In this document: piece after piece, positions 1 through 16,226 of the stretch
How positions within the stretch are numbered: position 1 is the first letter of the stretch
Layout: each line of letters opens with the position of its first letter
Assembly (NCBI GenBank): GCA_043812975.1
Contig: JBDRLP010000057.1
Location: forward strand, 1-31,728
DNA length: 31,728 bases
Direction: 5' to 3'
From: Candidatus Iainarchaeum sp.
GTDB lineage: Archaea > Iainarchaeota > Iainarchaeia > Iainarchaeales > Iainarchaeaceae
Program-made: the position numbers and the translations under genes
Notes under the pieces: generated by a model
Databases searched by the model: none
Told to the model about the DNA's origin: nothing
Seen by the model: only the letters and a program-made list of their open reading frames with translations

Positions 1-29
1 TTCAAACTCAAAAAGATTTCGCCAAAGAA
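1..29 (-). repeat. Orphan copy of the scpA 3' end (FFGEIFLSL...), truncated by the window edge
   Basis: Minus strand reads ttc ttt ggc gaa atc ttt ttg agt ttg aa. Bases 1-23 are identical to 1123-1145, and the peptide matches scpA 2311-2340. Confidence 0.85.
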
Positions 30-89
30 TACATACTACAATTCCGATTTACTTGGTTTTGAAATATTACTTGCAACAAGAAGAATTTC
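30..89. repeat. 60-bp conserved non-coding arm, copy 1
   Basis: 55/60 identical to 1650-1709; abuts the scpA-tail copy at the same register. Confidence 0.9.
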
Positions 90-111
90 CGGCAGAAGTA
101 TTTATATTTTT

Positions 112-1053
112 TTAAAACCAGTTTCTTTTTTTGAAAAACCAAAGCATTGAAACTGACAAGATTATCATGAAAAAAATCATTACCCAAAATCCATAAGGAA
201 AAGCAGCTCCAGGAAGAATCTCGAAATTAGTCCCATAAATCCCAGAAACAACTGTTAACGGCAATGCAATAGTAGCAATAACGCTCAAAATTTTCATTAC
301 TTCATTACTGTTATTTGCTATTGAAGACATGTACACATCAAAGGCATTTCCTACTGCTTCTCTGGAATTATCAATATAATCAGAAACTCTTACTGCATGG
401 TCATAAACATCTCTAAAATAAGGAACAGCTTTCTTTGAAATTAATTCATAATCATTCTTTGCAAGGAAAGAAACTTTTTCTCTCTGAGCAAAAGCAGATT
501 TTTTGATTTTTACAACCATTCTTTTTAACTTCAAAATTTCCACAAGAGAAGAAGGAAGTGGTTTTTTTGCAACCTTTTCCTCAAGCACTTCAATTTTGTC
601 ACCAATTTCTTCCAAAACAGGAAAATAATTATCCACTTCCATATCAAGCAATTTATGGAAAATAAAATCCGGGCCTTTCTTAAATAATGATTCGATTTTT
701 TGTGAATCGTTTTTGAGTTTTGAAAAAGAACCAATTTCATTTTTATGATTGCTTATCACAAAATTTTTTCCTATCACAAAATCAAGTTCAATCAATTCAA
801 CAGACTTTGTCTTCTTGATGCCATAAAAAACACAAAAAAGATAATCAGAAAATTTTTCAACCTTAATCCTTATATGCTGATTAATAAAGTCTTCAATTGT
901 CAAAGGATGCAAACCAAAATTAGCTTTAACCAACTCAGCTTCTTCCTTTGTTATACCCGTAATGTCAACCCAAACCAGTTTGTCATTTAATTTTGACAAA
1001 TCCGCAGGTTTAGCTTTTTTCAATACTTTATCAAAATAAAAAATATCAATCAT
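112..1053 (-). CDS. corA: CorA-family Mg2+/Co2+ transporter
   Basis: WVDI and FGLHPL motifs, YFRDVYDH, two C-terminal TM helices, and signature GIYGTNF (a GMN variant). Confidence 0.93.
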   Translation of the reverse strand: MIDIFYFDKVLKKAKPADLSKLNDKLVWVDITGITKEEAELVKANFGLHPLTIEDFINQHIRIKVEKFSDYLFCVFYGIKKTKSVELIELDFVIGKNFVISNHKNEIGSFSKLKNDSQKIESLFKKGPDFIFHKLLDMEVDNYFPVLEEIGDKIEVLEEKVAKKPLPSSLVEILKLKRMVVKIKKSAFAQREKVSFLAKNDYELISKKAVPYFRDVYDHAVRVSDYIDNSREAVGNAFDVYMSSIANNSNEVMKILSVIATIALPLTVVSGIYGTNFEILPGAAFPYGFWVMIFFMIILSVSMLWFFKKRNWF

Positions 1054-1106
1054 TAATGCAATATAAAGCCAAATTATTTAAAAGAACTCGGAATCACCAA
1101 ATTGAT

Positions 1107-1151
1107 CTAAATTTTGTCATTATTCAAACTCAAAAAGATTTCGCCGAAAAA
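1107..1151 (-). repeat. Orphan copy of the scpA 3' end encoding FFGEIFLSLNNDKI*
   Basis: 10/10 aa identical to ScpA FFGEIFLSLN with five synonymous codon differences; has its own TAG stop at 1107-1109. Confidence 0.88.
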
Positions 1152-1176
1152 AGGTAATGGGTGTTTGGAAATATAC

Positions 1177-1554
1177 TCAAAAACCAAACCCAATCCAAGA
1201 CAGCCAAATGCCCAAAAGCAGAAGAAATAAAGTTGAAAAAAACTGTTTGTTCTTAAACATCTGCGCCTTCTCATGTATCGATTCAGGAAAACCTATTTTG
1301 TGGATTCCCTTCATAACCGTGCCCCAACCTAAAATCGTTATAGCAACAGGCCAATCCCACACCCAAATGTTATGGATTGCCACAGTGCCCAGGCCCATCA
1401 ACAACGTGCTATAACCGGTGGCAATAACAAATTTCTTGTCATCAGTCATTTCGATGGTTTTGCCTAATTGTTGTGTAACAATAAACAACAAACTGAAAAT
1501 TATGTAAAATAAACCCCAAAATCTTGCCAATGCAAAAGAAATTTCAAGCTCCAC
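1177..1554 (-). CDS. Small integral membrane protein (about 4 TM helices), function unknown
   Basis: 125-aa ORF with four hydrophobic segments; GTG start preceded by a GGTGTGA RBS-like sequence. Confidence 0.8.
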   Translation of the reverse strand: MELEISFALARFWGLFYIIFSLLFIVTQQLGKTIEMTDDKKFVIATGYSTLLMGLGTVAIHNIWVWDWPVAITILGWGTVMKGIHKIGFPESIHEKAQMFKNKQFFSTLFLLLLGIWLSWIGFGF

Positions 1555-1595
1555 TTTTCACACCAATAAAAAGAACAATTATCAAAAATAAATAA

Positions 1596-1649
1596 CTATC
1601 GTTTTTCTTCAGGATTCTTTACTGTGGCAATGAAAATCTCGTCAAAGAA
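1596..1649 (-). repeat. Divergent orphan scpA 3' end encoding FFDEIFIATVKNPEEKR*
   Basis: FFxEIF core in the same register relative to the arm as the copy at 1-29; TAG stop at 1596-1598. Confidence 0.75.
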
Positions 1650-1709
1650 TATATACTACAATTACGATTTACTTGGTTTTGAAATATTATTTGCAACAGG
1701 AAAAATTTC
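1650..1709. repeat. 60-bp conserved non-coding arm, copy 2
   Basis: 55/60 identical to 30-89 (offset exactly 1620 bp). Positions 1664-1700 are an imperfect inverted repeat of 2227-2262. Confidence 0.9.
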
Positions 1710-1711
1710 TT

Positions 1712-1930
1712 TCAGTAGAACTCTTCTTTTGGTTTTCCAGTCTGCTTAATGATAAACTTTATTACAAAAAGCGTAACCATTTTGTGATGAGGAACCCAAG
1801 TTGTAAGAACGTTTCCTTTTGAATCAGTTTTCTTGAAAGTAATATGCTTGCCGCTTCTTACTCGTTTAAAACCGTTTGACTCAAGAATTTTGATTACTTT
1901 ATCCTGACTTAGAGAGTGAAGCCTTCCCAT
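1712..1930 (-). CDS. hicA: HicA-family toxin (mRNA interferase)
   Basis: 72 aa, basic, with the pattern VIKILESNGF..VR.GKH...K...VPHH; overlaps the upstream hicB. Confidence 0.85.
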   Translation of the reverse strand: MGRLHSLSQDKVIKILESNGFKRVRSGKHITFKKTDSKGNVLTTWVPHHKMVTLFVIKFIIKQTGKPKEEFY

Positions 1931-2189
1931 GCAAAACCCCCAGTTTAACAGGCATGCTCACAAGAGACACCGAACTTGACAAAATCTCTTTCAAAGAAGG
2001 TTTTCTTGTGTCAGGGTCTTCAAAATACTCGCCAATCAAATCCTTCATGTTTTCCTTAACTTCTTTTTCAGTCTTACCTTGTGTTGCAATATCCAAAATA
2101 GGACAAGAAGCCACAAACCAACGACCTTCTTTACTCATTACAATAGGCAGAGAAACAGGAAACTCATTTTGCTTTTGCATAGAAACCAT
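1899..2189 (-). CDS. hicB: HicB-family antitoxin (short form, no obvious DNA-binding domain)
   Basis: EGRWFVASCPILDIATQGKTEKEVKENMKDLIGEY is the HicB motif. The start could be at 2189 or 2180. Confidence 0.87.
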   Translation of the reverse strand: MVSMQKQNEFPVSLPIVMSKEGRWFVASCPILDIATQGKTEKEVKENMKDLIGEYFEDPDTRKPSLKEILSSSVSLVSMPVKLGVLHGKASLSKSG

Positions 2190-2226
2190 AATGTAAATGA
2201 TGGCAAGCGAAGTATAAAAGCATATT

Positions 2227-2271
2227 CCTGATTCAACAAAATCTCAATACCAAGTAATTCGTCCTGCCACA
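2227..2271 (-). repeat. Hybrid site: scpA WQDE-coding half joined to an arm-related sequence
   Basis: 2256-2271 aattcgtcctgccaca matches scpA 2339-2354 aattcatcctgccaca (15/16). 2227-2262 matches the reverse complement of 1664-1700 (29/37 with one gap). Confidence 0.75.
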
Positions 2272-2286
2272 ATTTTTAAAATGCTT

Positions 2287-3084
2287 TTAATTGTCATTTT
2301 GAGACGTTTTATTCAGGCTCAAAAATATCTCGCCGAAGAATTCATCCTGCCACATGTTGATTCTTCCTTTATTGGTTAGGAACAAGCAAGGAAGAAAAGT
2401 CCTGACAATATTGACAATGTCTCCGTCCTTGTTTTTAATTAATTGAGAAAACAAAACAAGACCCTCAGAATCAGCATTTTTTGTTATCATTTTGTAAACC
2501 TTATCCATTTCCTCATCAATCTGAAAATCCGGCATCGGAATATCAAATTTAGTTCTTTCTCTTTTCAGAAAACTTTTATCCTTGGTTTTTTTGGATTGCT
2601 GCAGCATCTTTTCAATCGAATCAACCAAAGCATCAAGAGAAACTTTTCCCTCCTTAATTTTTCTAATATTTTTCAAATCAGGAAGCAAGGCCTCAAACTC
2701 AGCTCTTTCCTCAGGAGACATTTCCTTTTTCTTTTCAAGAAACTCATCCTCATCATCAATATCACTAAGCTTCAAAACATTAGACTTAAATTTAAGGAGA
2801 ATCGCACTCGCGAGGATAGCATTAGCAGGCAACCTCAAATCAGTGCCTGTAAGCGCATTAATTTTTCCAAGATACATTTCAGCCAGATGAGCAATATCAA
2901 TATCCCAGGGATCCATTCTTTCCTTTTTCACCAATTCTATCAAAATCGTTTTCCACGCAGGCTGGTCAATCAAATCAACCAAACCCTCCTGATTCATGGA
3001 TTCAGGTAAGGCTATAGTAGAATCAGAATCTGTAGAAGACTCTAATTCCTGTAAATCAGAATTGCTGTTATCAGGGTTTTCCAT
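2287..3084 (-). CDS. scpA: Segregation and condensation protein A (kleisin subunit of SMC condensin)
   Basis: MDPWDIDI, ANAILASAILLKFKS and C-terminal FLPCLFL...G.I..WQDEFFGEI match archaeal ScpA. Confidence 0.92.
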   Translation of the reverse strand: MENPDNSNSDLQELESSTDSDSTIALPESMNQEGLVDLIDQPAWKTILIELVKKERMDPWDIDIAHLAEMYLGKINALTGTDLRLPANAILASAILLKFKSNVLKLSDIDDEDEFLEKKKEMSPEERAEFEALLPDLKNIRKIKEGKVSLDALVDSIEKMLQQSKKTKDKSFLKRERTKFDIPMPDFQIDEEMDKVYKMITKNADSEGLVLFSQLIKNKDGDIVNIVRTFLPCLFLTNKGRINMWQDEFFGEIFLSLNKTSQNDN

Positions 3085-3164
3085 ATAGAATAAAGGAAAA
3101 CAATGGAATAAATAAGTATTGGTTATGTAGCATTCATAGTGTATTTATGGTTAATTTGAGTTGC

Positions 3165-4412
3165 TTAAGTCCCTTCTTTCCACGAATTTAAGTACTTTAT
3201 TTGTTCTTCAGTAAGCTCGTCCATTTCTACTTTCATTGCATCTAACTGAAGCTGAGCAATACTCTTATCAACTTCCTCAGGAAGCATGTGCAAATTAACA
3301 TCTAATTTGTTCTTCAAACCATATTCAAGAGCAAGTGCCTGACCGCAAAAACTCAGACTCATTACAGCACTTGGATGGCCTTCAGCAGCACCTAAGTTTA
3401 CTAATCTTCCTTCTGCACACAAATTAATTTTTTTACCATCTTTCATTGTGTACTCATCCAACTGCCATCTGATTCTTTTTTTGCTGACACTTAACTCTTC
3501 CAAACCAGAAACATCTATTTCAGAATCAAAGTGACCTGAATTAGCAAGTATAACTCCGTCTTTCATTTTTGGCATTACTTTTTTTGGAATAACATTTTTG
3601 TTTCCGGTAACTGTTACAAAAATATCCCCTAATGAAGCTGCTTCATCCATTGGCATTACTCTGTAACCATCCATCTTAGCCTGTAAAGCAGGAATAGGTT
3701 CAACTTCCGTAACAATAACATTTGCGCCAAGGCCTTTGCTTCTTAATGCAACTCCTTTTCCGCAGGAACCATAACCAATAACAACAACGGTTTTTCCTGC
3801 AAACAAAATATTTGTTGCTCTTAAAATTCCATCAATAGTACTCTGACCTGTTCCGTAATAATTATCAAATAAGTGTTTTGTTTTGTTATCATTCACAGCG
3901 ACAACAGGATATTTCAATGCATTTTCTTTTACCATTGCTTTTAATCTTATAATTCCTGTTGTGGTTTCTTCTGTTCCAACAACCAAATCATCAATTAATT
4001 CAGGTCTCTTTAAATGAATTTCAGAAACCAGATCAAGACCATCATCAATAGTTGCTGTTGGTTTAATATCCAAAACTTTACTCAAGTACTCATAATATTC
4101 CTCATTAGTTTCTCCTTTTTTTGCATAAACATTAACTCCTTCTTTTGCGAGAGCTGCAGCAACATCATCCTGAGTACTTAATGGATTACAACCAGTGATT
4201 GCAACTTCTGCACCGCCGGCAATCAGAGTTCTGACTAGGACTCCTGTTTCTTTAGTGACATGCAGAGCCATTCCTACTCTGTGACCTTTCAATGGCTTTT
4301 CTTTTTCAAAGCGTTTCTTAACTTCTAAAAGCGCCCCCATCTGGGTTTCAGCCCATTCTAACTGCATTTTCCCCTGTTCTGCTAACTTGATATCTTTCAC
4401 ATCATAACTCAT
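3165..4412 (-). CDS. ahcY: Adenosylhomocysteinase (SAH hydrolase)
   Basis: LHVTKET, CNPLSTQD, EETTTG, KHLFDNYYGTGQS and EGRLVNLGAAEGHP motifs. Confidence 0.98.
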   Translation of the reverse strand: MSYDVKDIKLAEQGKMQLEWAETQMGALLEVKKRFEKEKPLKGHRVGMALHVTKETGVLVRTLIAGGAEVAITGCNPLSTQDDVAAALAKEGVNVYAKKGETNEEYYEYLSKVLDIKPTATIDDGLDLVSEIHLKRPELIDDLVVGTEETTTGIIRLKAMVKENALKYPVVAVNDNKTKHLFDNYYGTGQSTIDGILRATNILFAGKTVVVIGYGSCGKGVALRSKGLGANVIVTEVEPIPALQAKMDGYRVMPMDEAASLGDIFVTVTGNKNVIPKKVMPKMKDGVILANSGHFDSEIDVSGLEELSVSKKRIRWQLDEYTMKDGKKINLCAEGRLVNLGAAEGHPSAVMSLSFCGQALALEYGLKNKLDVNLHMLPEEVDKSIAQLQLDAMKVEMDELTEEQIKYLNSWKEGT

Positions 4413-4511
4413 ATAATCACTTAAAAATTACAATTCAGAGCTTTTTTAAATCATTGGTACGATTCGGGTAAATTGACAATATTTAAATATGCTCAATAAG
4501 TTGTATAATAT

Positions 4512-4820
4512 ATGGCTAGACGAAGTAGACGAAAGAAAAGAAAACCTGAACGTGGATTTTTTAGCTTTTTAAAAAGAGGAAGTTATTACGAAAGAAGTTG
4601 GGGTAGTAGAAATATTACTCATTTAAGCTCAAGGTTACCTTCTGCTATTTCAGAAAAATTAAGAACCGAAAATATAGTTTCGGTTGGCTGGGCATTAAGG
4701 GGAACTAAATTAGTTTATAAAAAAGAGGGAAAAAGCAGGGTAAACGTACTTGACTCTGCCAAAAATACAATTATGCGATACGATTATTTTACTAGAAATG
4801 CAATTAATCCAGTAGAATAG
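4512..4820 (+). CDS. Orphan basic protein with Arg/Lys-rich N-terminus (MARRSRRKKRKP)
   Basis: 102-aa ORF with a TATA box (atttaaata, 4481-4489) about 23 nt upstream, consistent with a leaderless transcript. Confidence 0.7.
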   Translation: MARRSRRKKRKPERGFFSFLKRGSYYERSWGSRNITHLSSRLPSAISEKLRTENIVSVGWALRGTKLVYKKEGKSRVNVLDSAKNTIMRYDYFTRNAINPVE

Positions 4821-4843
4821 GATTTAAGAAAACCAGTGATTAT

Positions 4844-5119
4844 ATGCCTAAGTTCAGAATACCAAGAATAATTCCGAGATCCGTAAGTAAACACATACCT
4901 TATTTTGGAAAACCAAAAACTGTTCCACAAGTTGTGAGAGAACAATTAGCTTCAGGAATTTCTCCAGCCGTACACAAAAGAGCTGTTTGGACTGGATTTA
5001 AAAAAATACATTGGACTAAAGAAGAATCTAGTTTCATAGCAAGGTATCTTAAAAAAAAGGGAAAACTTAAAACACATAAAATATGGGCAACCTATGACAA
5101 TGAAGGGAATCTAAAATAA
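4844..5119 (+). CDS. Orphan basic protein (MPKFRIPRIIPR)
   Basis: 91-aa ORF with a GTGAT RBS just upstream; its stop abuts the convergent pfkB-family stop. Confidence 0.7.
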   Translation: MPKFRIPRIIPRSVSKHIPYFGKPKTVPQVVREQLASGISPAVHKRAVWTGFKKIHWTKEESSFIARYLKKKGKLKTHKIWATYDNEGNLK

Positions 5120-5122
5120 TAA

Positions 5123-6031
5123 TTAAAACTTCACAAATTCTTCAAATTCTTTATAACGTTTTTCAATATCTTCTATTGTTAATTCTTTTAGTTTTTCAAC
5201 AGAAAAGCCTTCAGCATTGAAAGAAGCAACAGCACTCGCATACACCAAAGCTTTTCGCATGTTCTCTTCGGAAAAATCATTTGTTTTTGCTAAATAACCA
5301 ATAAGAGTACCGCCAAATGAATCTCCGCTTCCTGTTGGATCTTTAACATTTTCCAGAGGATAACCCGGACATGAAAAATATTTTCCGCCAGAGAACATTA
5401 TACACCCATGTTCCCCTTTTTTTATTACCGCGATTTTAGAATCAAGTTTTAAAATTTCTTTTGCAGCCTTTGCAAGGTTTGAAGTATTGAACAACTGCCT
5501 TGCCTCAGCATCATTCATTAAGATCAAATCGACTTTTTTCACAACCTCAAGAACTTTATCACGTTTAATATTAATCCATAAATTCATTGTATCAGCAATA
5601 ACAAGACCAGGTCTTTTTTTCATCTGAGAAAGAACGCTTAATTGTAATTCAGGGTCTATGTTTCCTAAAAACAAAAAATCAGCTTCTCTGAATTCCTCAG
5701 AGAGTTCTGGGTTAAAAGTTTTCAGAACATTAAGATCAGTTTGCTTTGTAATTGCAGTGTTCAAATCCAACCCGTATTCACCTTCCCAGTGAAAGGTTTT
5801 CTCTCCACCCCTAACTTCAATTCCGGAAGTATCAATTCCTTTTGATTTAAACAATTTCAAATGCTCTTTTGGAAAATCATCCCCCACAACACCAACAATT
5901 CCTGCTTCAGAAAATAAAGAACACGCAAGCGAAGCAAAAGTAGCAGAACCTCCTAATACAGATTTAGCTTCCCCGAAAGGCGTTTTTACATCATCCAGTG
6001 CAAGAGAACCAACAATAACAACTTTTGGGAT
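5123..6031 (-). CDS. PfkB-family carbohydrate/nucleoside kinase (possibly adenosine kinase), with an apparent ATC start
   Basis: C-terminal DPTGSGDSFGG PfkB signature. The frame extends 48 codons beyond the ORF-track start to (I)PKVVIVGSLALD...LGGSATF, the conserved PfkB N-terminus. Confidence 0.9.
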   Translation of the reverse strand: MPKVVIVGSLALDDVKTPFGEAKSVLGGSATFASLACSLFSEAGIVGVVGDDFPKEHLKLFKSKGIDTSGIEVRGGEKTFHWEGEYGLDLNTAITKQTDLNVLKTFNPELSEEFREADFLFLGNIDPELQLSVLSQMKKRPGLVIADTMNLWINIKRDKVLEVVKKVDLILMNDAEARQLFNTSNLAKAAKEILKLDSKIAVIKKGEHGCIMFSGGKYFSCPGYPLENVKDPTGSGDSFGGTLIGYLAKTNDFSEENMRKALVYASAVASFNAEGFSVEKLKELTIEDIEKRYKEFEEFVKF

Positions 6032-15185: not shown

Positions 15186-16226
15186 TCAAGCTATCTCAGG
15201 GAGATCAAGGCTTTCTTCGTCTTTTCCTGAAATCTTGCCTAATAACCATGCTTTTTCACTATTTTTGTTCAGGAATTCAATTGCCTTTTCTGCGTCTTTT
15301 CTGGAAACAACGATAACAAGGCCAATTCCCATGTTAAACGCCCTGTACATTTCCTTTTCATCAATATTTCCGGAATTCTGGATTAATTTGAAAATATACG
15401 GTACTTCAATCGAAGAATAATCATATTCTGCTTTTAGTCCTTTTGGAAGTATCCTTGGAACATTCTCAACCAACCCTCCGCCCGTAATATGAGAAATTCC
15501 TTTTACAGTTATTTTACTCATTAAAGAGATAATTACTTTTGAGTAACTTCTGTGAACTTTCAATAATTCATCGCCAAGAGTTCCACGGAATTCTTTGAAA
15601 TAATCTTTAGGATCCAAATGAGATTGTTCAAACAAAACATGTCTTGCAAGAGAATAACCATTTGTATGAAGGCCATCAGATGCAAGTCCTATCATTACAT
15701 CTCCTGCTTTTATTTTAGAACCATCAACAAGGTTTGTTTTTTCAACAACACCAACCATACAGCCAACAACATCGTGTTCTTTTTTTTCATATACTCCAGG
15801 CATTTCTGCAGTTTCCCCGCCAATTAAAGCACAGTCAATTTCCTTGCATGCTTTTGCCATTCCTGTTACAATATCCTGAACATTTTTTGGCAAAATTTTA
15901 TCAGAAGCCAAATAATCCAAAAAGAAAAGCGGCTTAGCCCCCAAAGCAAGAATGTCATTCGAACAATGATTTACAATATCCTGACCTATTGTTTTCCAGT
16001 TTTCCATTTTAGAAGCAACTTTTAATTTAGTTCCGACACCATCAATAGTAGAAACAAGAATAGGGTTTTTCATTTTTACAATTTTTGCTAACGAAAATGC
16101 ACCGCCAAAAGAACCAAGACCTGTAAGAACCTGAGCATTATGAGTTTCTTTCACAACATTTTTTATTCTTTCAACTGATTCATTGCCGGCGTCAATATCA
16201 ACACCGGCATCCTTGTAAGATGCCAT
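15186..16226 (-). CDS. purM: Phosphoribosylformylglycinamidine cyclo-ligase (AIR synthetase)
   Basis: SYKDAGVDI, DGVGTK, GGETAEMPG, GLHTNGYSL, HITGGG and FNMGIG motifs. Confidence 0.98.
   Translation of the reverse strand: MASYKDAGVDIDAGNESVERIKNVVKETHNAQVLTGLGSFGGAFSLAKIVKMKNPILVSTIDGVGTKLKVASKMENWKTIGQDIVNHCSNDILALGAKPLFFLDYLASDKILPKNVQDIVTGMAKACKEIDCALIGGETAEMPGVYEKKEHDVVGCMVGVVEKTNLVDGSKIKAGDVMIGLASDGLHTNGYSLARHVLFEQSHLDPKDYFKEFRGTLGDELLKVHRSYSKVIISLMSKITVKGISHITGGGLVENVPRILPKGLKAEYDYSSIEVPYIFKLIQNSGNIDEKEMYRAFNMGIGLVIVVSRKDAEKAIEFLNKNSEKAWLLGKISGKDEESLDLPEIA

Follow-up and report, generated by a model that had tools for sequence, protein, structure and literature searches.

The scpA locus and its array of tail copies

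The stretch of DNA analysed here, referred to as the window, comprises 31,728 nt of a contig of Candidatus Iainarchaeum sp. (JBDRLP010000057.1 in assembly GCA_043812975.1, positions 1 to 31,728). Near its left end lies scpA, and behind scpA follows a row of small gene units that are separated by copies of the last scpA codons. We call these copies tails (orphan tails where they stand outside scpA), the FFGEIF-type codons at their start the core, and the units between them cassettes. The genome is a metagenome-assembled genome (MAG) of 68 contigs and 1.24 Mb and is 94.5% complete. All genes of window positions 1–4400 lie on the minus strand; read from scpA, the locus contains:

2287–3084, minus strand: scpA (kleisin of the SMC complex), the anchor gene, an open reading frame (ORF) of 265 residues, Pfam SMC_ScpA E = 5e-12
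2290–2340, minus strand: in-service tail T0, core FFGEIF at 2323–2340, then LSLNKTSQNDN
2220–2272, minus strand: degenerate fifth tail-like copy, WQDELLGIEILLNQEY, 15 nt behind the scpA stop and including the WQDE codons
1712–2189, minus strand: cargo of cassette 1, a hicB-like ORF (1899–2189) and hicA (1712–1930)
1650–1730, minus strand: class A upstream arm, copy 1, at a cassette boundary, from the 98-nt repeat
1596–1649, minus strand: orphan tail T1, FFDEIFIATVKNPEEKR before its stop codon, core at 1632–1649
1177–1554, minus strand: cargo of cassette 2, a hydrophobic (membrane-type) protein of 125 residues that belongs to no family
1107–1151, minus strand: orphan tail T2, FFGEIFLSLNNDKI before its stop codon, core at 1134–1151
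112–1053, minus strand: cargo of cassette 3, the magnesium-transporter gene corA, Pfam CorA E = 1.8e-68
30–110, minus strand: class A upstream arm, copy 2, from the 98-nt repeat
1–29, minus strand: orphan tail T3, core at 12–29, cut by the contig end
upstream of scpA, minus strand: S-adenosylhomocysteine (AdoHcy) hydrolase gene, named by eye from the sequence; its homologue in the related genome G016 matches Pfam AdoHcyase

The Pfam score of scpA was 46.7 bits (cut-off 24.6), and an scpA match was present in 40 of 41 related genomes. The gene carries the tail WQDEFFGEIFLSLN at 2311–2352. Searching the window with the core pattern TTYTTYGRCGARATHTTY, allowing at most one mismatch, gave four matches, all on the scpA strand; the mean for shuffled sequence was 0.03, and none of 100 shuffles reached four. 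In cassette 1, hicA matched HicA_toxin (E = 6.4e-10), and the 96-residue hicB-like ORF, without a Pfam match at 0.01, was named from its position and size only. The three units measure 0.5–1.1 kb each, hold one or two genes apiece and contain no integrase. A direct repeat of 98 nt (13–110 and 1633–1730, 83% identity) shows that the corA and hicBA units have a common arm of ~70 nt upstream of their tail copy, and two of the three units thus end in this arm plus a core. No integrase was found in window positions 1–6000, and the window contains no tRNA genes. Within positions 1–3200 no stretch of 40 nt exceeds 58% G+C, and GC-rich hairpin insertion elements are thus not involved at this locus.

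A sequence-only reading of the window had placed the orphan tails at 1596–1649, 1107–1151 and 1–29, each in the orientation of scpA and beginning with the FF codons, and had put hicBA, a membrane-protein gene and corA between them, with no recombinase. These coordinates turned out to be exact, the cargo was borne out by Pfam, by the hydrophobic ORF and, for hicB, by position and size, and neither Pfam nor tblastn revealed a recombinase in the inserts. The degenerate fifth copy, the 98-nt repeat with its arm and the contig end at position 1 were not part of that reading.

Two further features of the locus were seen. The codons TTC TTC GGC GAG in the scpA core (2323–2340) account for 20%, 20%, 14%, and 25% of their codon families in four window genes; such minority codons hint at a constraint at the DNA level or at a foreign origin of the tail. 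In addition, an inverted repeat of 28 nt flanks hicBA (1664–1691 and 2235–2262, also 45–68; 82% complementary). The degenerate tail copy behind scpA forms one side of this repeat and part of the class A arm the other, which means that the class A arm contains an inverted tail-like piece.

Strain variants at the end of the contig

Window position 1 is a contig end and lies inside T3. C48 and C62, two further contigs of this assembly, each overlap the window at positions 1–140; they split a few bases after the T3 core and rejoin 4.7–5.9 kb further on, at msrB (named from the sequence). T3 continues as LSLNNDSEKKP before the stop codon in C48 and as LSLNTGSVNLDQK in C62, and the C48 form matches the distal orphan tail of the sister genome G003 (LSLNNDSEKKA). 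Between the split and msrB, C48 encodes a secreted-type protein of 525 residues and a hydrolase-type (DUF5648/esterase-type) protein of 1183 residues; C62 carries a VIT1-like gene, a DsbD-like gene, DUF134 and DUF5320 genes, and a serpin gene. From corA to msrB, the two variants have only a membrane-protein gene of ~400 nt in common (81%), and no tail core was present on the far side of the variable stretch. The split therefore indicates that two strains of the sample differ from exactly the T3 core onward.

A misassembly is unlikely, since a single contig contains all three internal copies and these are diverged. Low-depth contigs from public runs, which may derive from the source sample, bridge positions 1480–1795 and 2162–2416 without differences and thereby span two junctions of the array, T1 and the scpA tail/hicB end. 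In many relatives the contig stops at scpA or within it, which is what arrays that disrupt assembly would produce. Elsewhere in this assembly, contigs C54 and C55 (3536 and 2803 nt) start with the same 40 bases, also end with the same 40, and are probably another strain bubble.

Recurrence of the array across the order

An unbiased sample was composed of the window's own locus and 20 relatives of the order, picked as scpA matches regardless of repeats. In most of the 20 relatives ScpA ends in the motif WQ-E-FFGEIF. Orphan tails on the same strand downstream of scpA were present at nine of the 21 loci (the window's own, G003, G007, G014, G022, G017, G016, G030, and G037) and not found at the other 12, three of which have less than 1.3 kb of downstream sequence. 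The orphan tails begin at the FF codons, and the sequence upstream of them is unrelated. In 196 genomes of the order, matches to the core pattern numbered 143, compared with 21 for the reversed pattern. Clusters of cores on the same contig and strand also occurred in G002, G004, G055, G057, G097, G103, G123, and G162; the pair in G055, once fetched, was not tail-like and was rejected.

A tail-site profile, built from many of the same sites, was applied to 45 loci (366 kb). It yielded 26 same-strand core-to-core intervals, of which 25 measured 408–2553 nt and one 10,684 nt. Arrays reach five or more units, and the same anatomy was seen in 2-contig, 10-contig and other assemblies of other sources. 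Gene content behind scpA varies between relatives and also between the strains of this assembly, in line with the variable cassette content that the sequence-only reading had anticipated. Its proposal of serial insertion at one scpA 3' site, each insert bringing a replacement tail, is supported by a pattern that recurs across the order. The misassembly that it had named as an alternative does not fit diverged copies inside one contig and an anatomy that recurs in independent assemblies.

Several orphan tails resemble tails that are in use in other genomes. T1 resembles the working scpA tail of G003 (FFGEIFIATVKSDEKP before the stop codon), and T2 that of a second sister genome, G002 (FFGEIFLCLNNGKI before the stop codon). 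G097 and G038 belong to different families, and an orphan tail of the former is identical to the working tail of the latter at 18 of 18 nt after the core. The present scpA tail of the window (LSLNKT.Q.DN before the stop codon) occurs together with the degenerate copy as a distal orphan in G014, a member of another genus (L037 6845–6953), which indicates that this unit of ~105 nt travels whole. Comparing 17 orphan cores with their resident cores, 41 of 49 differences fell at third codon positions, a soft figure that was obtained after dropping two mis-registered rows of L050 and with a detection profile that favours such sites. The bias suggests that the tails may have diverged while in service.

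Cassette contents and boundaries

The cargo of the small intervals consists mostly of toxin–antitoxin or similar pairs. VapBC was found in G007, two RelE/ParE-type pairs, MazF with a ribbon-helix-helix (RHH) partner and HicBA in G014, and MNT-HEPN in G057 and G097; other intervals hold PIN, Fic/DOC, and ParE-type genes. Further cargo included an AAA_14 ATPase, a protein with a PEP-utiliser domain and unknowns. Among the ORFs of the small intervals that were scanned, Pfam detected no recombinase domain, and tblastn with the four tyrosine recombinases of this genome gave no match and no integrase fragments in the small intervals of the loci searched. Counted by strand, 37 cassette ORFs were co-oriented and 21 opposite, although these numbers are inflated by spurious antisense ORFs. 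In three of 25 intervals the only ORFs of at least 55 residues lie on the opposite strand, and cassette orientation is thus not uniform.

Cassette boundaries are conserved beyond the core. Four successive boundaries in G014 have the same arm of ~45 nt, each followed by a tail variant (FFGEVF, FFREIF, FFGEVF, and FFGEIF), and this arm was also found in G003, G002, and G022. A cassette with its arm is 84% identical between G003 and G014 over 655 nt, where scpA is 75% identical, and 82% identical between G002 and G014 over 758 nt, where scpA is 71% identical. Cassettes and arms are therefore common to different genera at an identity above that of scpA. The class A arm of the window has TTGCAA at the same distance as TGGCAA in the arms of family f25 described below, but is otherwise of its own type.

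Integrase-bearing elements at scpA

Genes for tyrosine integrases were found at the same site in three relatives. In G098, scpA (2875–3597) is followed by the gene for an integrase of 481 residues (3635–5080), whose start lies 38 nt behind the scpA stop; the element also contains a large terminase and a phage cement-protein domain, and an orphan tail follows at 16178, 12.6 kb on. In G170, an integrase of 478 residues begins 37 nt behind the scpA stop, the element encodes helix-turn-helix (HTH) proteins and unknowns, and the orphan tail lies 10.7 kb on. G035 came up first, when the integrases of this genome served as queries against the fetched loci: the contig ends within an integrase gene directly behind scpA, and a second contig has an orphan tail with the gene for an integrase of 484 residues starting 73 nt behind it. 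The sequence-only reading had called for a search for a recombinase at the far end of the array or elsewhere in the genome. Integrases were indeed found at scpA in these relatives, but this genome has no close copy of them.

The full-length integrases of G098, G170, and G035 (the second one) are related, with 71% identity to the G035 protein in the alignment (71–74% in the search). All three retain R, K, HxxR, and Y, and the catalytic residues are thus intact. The scpA-associated integrases have a Phage_integrase domain, a C-terminal zinc ribbon and a common N-terminal part of ~170 residues that is absent from other homologues. With the NCBIfam model of integron integrases (TIGR02249, cut-off 265 bits) they scored 20–32 bits, the three integrase paralogues of this genome 38–55 bits and XerA 202 bits, and no protein scanned passed. 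By the NCBIfam cut-offs the scpA-associated integrases are neither integron integrases nor XerA.

Mini-cassettes and full-size elements share a boundary. In family f25 we compared six mini-cassette boundaries (three each from G097 and G103) with the right ends of the G098 and G170 elements. TGGCAA ~45–50 nt upstream and CTAA just upstream of the core were present in seven of these eight boundaries, and the mini-cassettes thus share their upstream arm with full-size integrase elements. In the three integrase-bearing units, a candidate reverse complement of the arm-motif 8-mer lies behind the new tail, exact in one and with one mismatch in two.

The three paralogues in this genome are 32–39% identical to the scpA-associated integrase, in the catalytic part only, and one of them lies near a tRNA-Glu gene. 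Serine recombinases (PF00239) and HUH Y1 transposases (PF01797) gave no match in this genome. At another locus (L170, ~2830–2960), a relative with 35% identity to the scpA-associated integrase stands just behind a tRNA gene that apparently carries an insertion, which implies that target choice varies within this integrase family.

A model of tandem accretion at scpA and its alternatives

Taken together, these data point to the 3' end of scpA as the attachment site of tyrosine-integrase elements, at which integrase-less cassettes resembling cis-mobilisable elements (CIMEs) have accumulated in tandem; we give this reading a probability of roughly 65%. The last scpA codons, with the core TTYTTYGGNGARATNTTY encoding FFGEIF, would serve as attB for a family of mobile elements of this archaeal order. 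An element would integrate by means of a tyrosine integrase and bring its own core plus the remaining tail codons. After the crossover scpA would end in the tail of the element, and the earlier tail would be stranded as an orphan behind the insert. Repeated integration at this site could produce the observed order of scpA, tail, hicBA, tail, membrane-protein gene, tail, corA, and tail. The final 18 codons of scpA are accordingly its current tail, supplied by an element. The three units of the window are non-autonomous and would depend on an integrase from full-size relatives. Candidate sources are the elements of 10.7–12.6 kb that G098 and G170 carry at scpA, together with the integrase genes behind the G035 tails. 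Either this integrase may act in trans, or a full-size element may land beside the cassettes and excise with them (accretion and cis-mobilisation). We infer mobilisation in trans, the position of the crossover, the present-day mobility of the cassettes and the identity of the integrase that acts on this array from the arrangement of the locus.

The anatomy is that of known integrated elements in several respects. Direct repeats of the target 3' end flank the inserts and the scpA reading frame is restored. An integrase with the catalytic pattern R..K..HxxR..Y stands at one end in G098, G170, and G035, but not in the three units of the window. The tail-bearing small units fit the CIME definition, i.e., att sites are kept on both sides while integration and transfer genes are absent (PMC5704250), and arm plus core are retained in two of the three window units.

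Other observations weigh against tandem accretion by integrase-driven insertion. At 94.5% completeness, this genome lacks a close homologue of the scpA-associated integrase, and the array-bearing G003 (92% complete), G002, G004, and G014, all incomplete MAGs, gave no match to it at E = 1e-25. No excised circle, empty site, joint or loose end was seen for positions 1–3100 in the Logan contigs of public runs, whose depth of ~2–5 is too thin to bear on excision or empty sites. An episomal attP form was not found either: none of 81 core-pattern loci in viral contigs had an scpA-like tail context, and a search of viral contigs with the G098 integrase gave no relative. The class A arm (23-nt centre) was found in this genome only among 23 family genomes, a metagenome scan returned three chance matches without scpA or integrase, and the resemblance of this arm to those of the integrase-bearing elements is loose. 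In cassette 2 the conserved arm is absent from the stretch between the cargo stop and T2. Adjacent cores differ by 1–4 nt, which means that any exchange was not very recent or tolerates mismatches. Simple stacking gives no explanation for orphan tails away from scpA (those next to secY and secD in G022 and G003 and the one on contig C44 of this genome).

Part of this evidence would also suit a view in which the small units are deletion leftovers of full-size integrase elements, i.e., CIMEs that arose by decay and are now immobile, with toxin–antitoxin genes surviving because they resist loss. Bacterial CIMEs typically arise by decay (PMC5704250), full-size elements do exist at the site, and both the missing cognate integrase in the five array-bearing genomes named above and the diverged cores, with T2 lacking its arm, would be expected of dead remnants. 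Nevertheless, we consider this unlikely, if clearly worth keeping in mind. No integrase fragment matched in the small intervals of the loci searched, the arms stand directly behind intact gene pairs, and the same arm recurs at four successive boundaries in G014. Moreover, the same cassettes and arms occur in different genera at an identity above that of scpA, and random deletion would not give such uniform and compact units.

Enzymes other than the scpA-associated integrases were considered as well. If the core were dif-like, host XerA could insert and remove the cassettes as in Xer-dependent elements of the IMEX or pdif-module type, which would account for cassettes without a recombinase. This genome encodes XerA on contig C27 (NCBIfam recomb_XerA_Arch, 271 bits, cut-off 220), a tyrosine recombinase match (PF00589) was found in 186 of the 196 genomes of the order, with XerA nearly universal, and the array-bearing G003 and G002 show XerA as their only tyrosine recombinase; the inverted repeat that flanks hicBA also suits such elements. 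However, 52 aligned tail sites lacked 11-nt arms around a spacer of 5–8 nt (mean best match 5.96 of 11, 6.33 in shuffled sequence), the core varies at synonymous sites across the order and dedicated integrases stand directly at the site in three genomes, all of which makes a role of XerA improbable. Homologous recombination through the conserved scpA end with DNA of relatives, or mis-joining of strains during assembly, is more doubtful still. A MAG of 68 contigs with strain bubbles at the locus, and the many relatives' contigs that break at or near scpA, would speak for it, but the left edge of the orphans is fixed and their arms are conserved, one contig holds three diverged copies, contigs from public runs bridge two junctions and the anatomy is the same in assemblies of other sources. 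Least probable of all is a true integron, or a cluster of attC sites without integrase, in which IntI would capture cassettes through folded single-stranded attC. Short cassettes with many toxin–antitoxin pairs, a repeat of ~75–100 nt behind each and a fixed insertion point recall this system, which has been reported from archaeal MAGs (PMC9668308). Yet stretches of 107 nt centred on 15 sites, folded as DNA for either strand, gave z values from -1.7 to +1.4, the boundary repeat contained no local inverted repeat, the TIGR02249 scores lie far below the cut-off, the insertion point is the FFGEIF codons inside scpA and not a site beside an intI gene, and opposite-strand ORFs are the only ones in some intervals. 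The label "integron-like" in the sequence-only reading was dropped for lack of an attC fold and of an integron-type integrase.

Starting again from tandem accretion at scpA, a bolder version is possible, though we regard it as rather doubtful. The Iainarchaeia may possess a functioning cassette platform similar to the integron by convergence, with a bipartite double-stranded site made up of an arm of 45–70 nt, core and replacement tail, a shared pool of cassettes of 0.4–2.6 kb, and a dedicated clade of zinc-ribbon tyrosine integrases on proviruses that would capture, reshuffle and spread them. The cargo, mostly toxin–antitoxin and other defence-type genes and also transporters such as corA, may then spread between genera and families, and the capture site would be stable because it lies in an essential kleisin gene.

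Comparison with known systems

Phage 21 and the element e14 integrate in the 3' part of icd in Escherichia coli, carry an alternative 3' end and leave an orphan tail. As at scpA, the target gene stays intact; these are single bacterial prophages, however, and not arrays of mini-cassettes. IMEX elements and pdif modules are recombinase-less, often carry toxin–antitoxin genes and gather at or between Xer recombination sites. The scpA site differs in having no dif-type dyad and in being associated with dedicated integrases. Elements of the ICESt1 type have the 3' end of fda as their target.

A close likeness is with CIMEs and their tandem accretion with integrative and conjugative elements (ICEs) or integrative and mobilisable elements (IMEs), of the ICESt1 type in Streptococcus thermophilus, where the 3' end of a gene is likewise targeted and then restored (PMC5704250). 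As at scpA, CIMEs have attL/attR-type flanks, lack integration genes and share a tandem arrangement or an insertion site with relatives that carry an integrase. The arrays described here, by contrast, occur in a DPANN archaeon, have scpA as their target and have full-size partners that look viral (terminase in G098) and not conjugative; the units are far smaller (0.4–2.6 kb), form arrays of up to five or more and show no trace of a decayed integrase. In the tycheposon islands of Prochlorococcus, repeated integration at one site also pushes older elements inward and leaves scattered partial target copies with strain-variable cargo (bioRxiv 10.1101/2020.12.28.424599). Tycheposons target tRNA genes, have their own integrase and often replication genes, and leave fragmented integrases, while most units at scpA have no integrase at all. 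Uniform small units, the bias toward toxin–antitoxin genes and the absence of integrase debris set the scpA arrays apart from CIMEs and tycheposon islands alike. Integrons, including those of archaeal MAGs, are similar in their fixed capture point, in short cassettes with a site of ~60–140 nt each, in many toxin–antitoxin cassettes and in clusters without a nearby integrase (PMC9668308). Unlike them, the scpA arrays have neither a folded attC nor IntI, capture takes place inside a housekeeping gene whose tail is replaced each time, and orientation is mixed. The claim of the sequence-only reading that this type of locus has no precedent could not be upheld, given the attL/attR anatomy of tyrosine-integrase elements at gene 3' ends, CIMEs, and tycheposon islands.

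Our literature search gave no report of archaeal elements that integrate at scpA, and the main text of a survey of archaeal proviruses contains none of the terms 'scpA', 'attB', and 'integration site' (PMC13573593). Most archaeal attB sites are tRNA genes, and scpA adds a protein-coding attB to a list that they dominate (PMC8371274). The scpA locus represents a recurrent and precisely bounded site of entry and accumulation for accessory genes. In DPANN archaea, whose genomes are tiny, few routes of gene exchange have been recognised. The mini-cassettes are linked to provirus-type elements with a likely enzyme, and this link provides a concrete pair of integrase and site that is testable by recombination. 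For annotation, the orphan tails account for the frequent assembly breaks at scpA. Should the cassettes prove mobile, they would represent a second, independent route to integron-like arrays.

Orphan tails away from scpA

On contig C44 of this genome, far from scpA, a Band 7/SPFH gene is followed after 33 nt by an orphan tail (FFGEIFLSLNKEQV before the stop codon; C44:24191–24235, L163 6192–6235). Beyond this tail come a VapBC pair and a HicB-like gene, which form a second small toxin–antitoxin island with the same footprint. Further orphan tails on contigs without scpA were found at L068 4094 (G022, behind secY), L065 4059 (G003, behind secD), and L069 4047 (G022), and those of G003 are followed by class B arms and hicBA. 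Such orphan tails beside housekeeping genes are either relocated pieces of an array or secondary insertion sites. The locus that covers the C44 tail (L163) also contains, at 158–3352, a gene for a LonB-type protease with a match to an intein-splicing domain inside its ATPase part.

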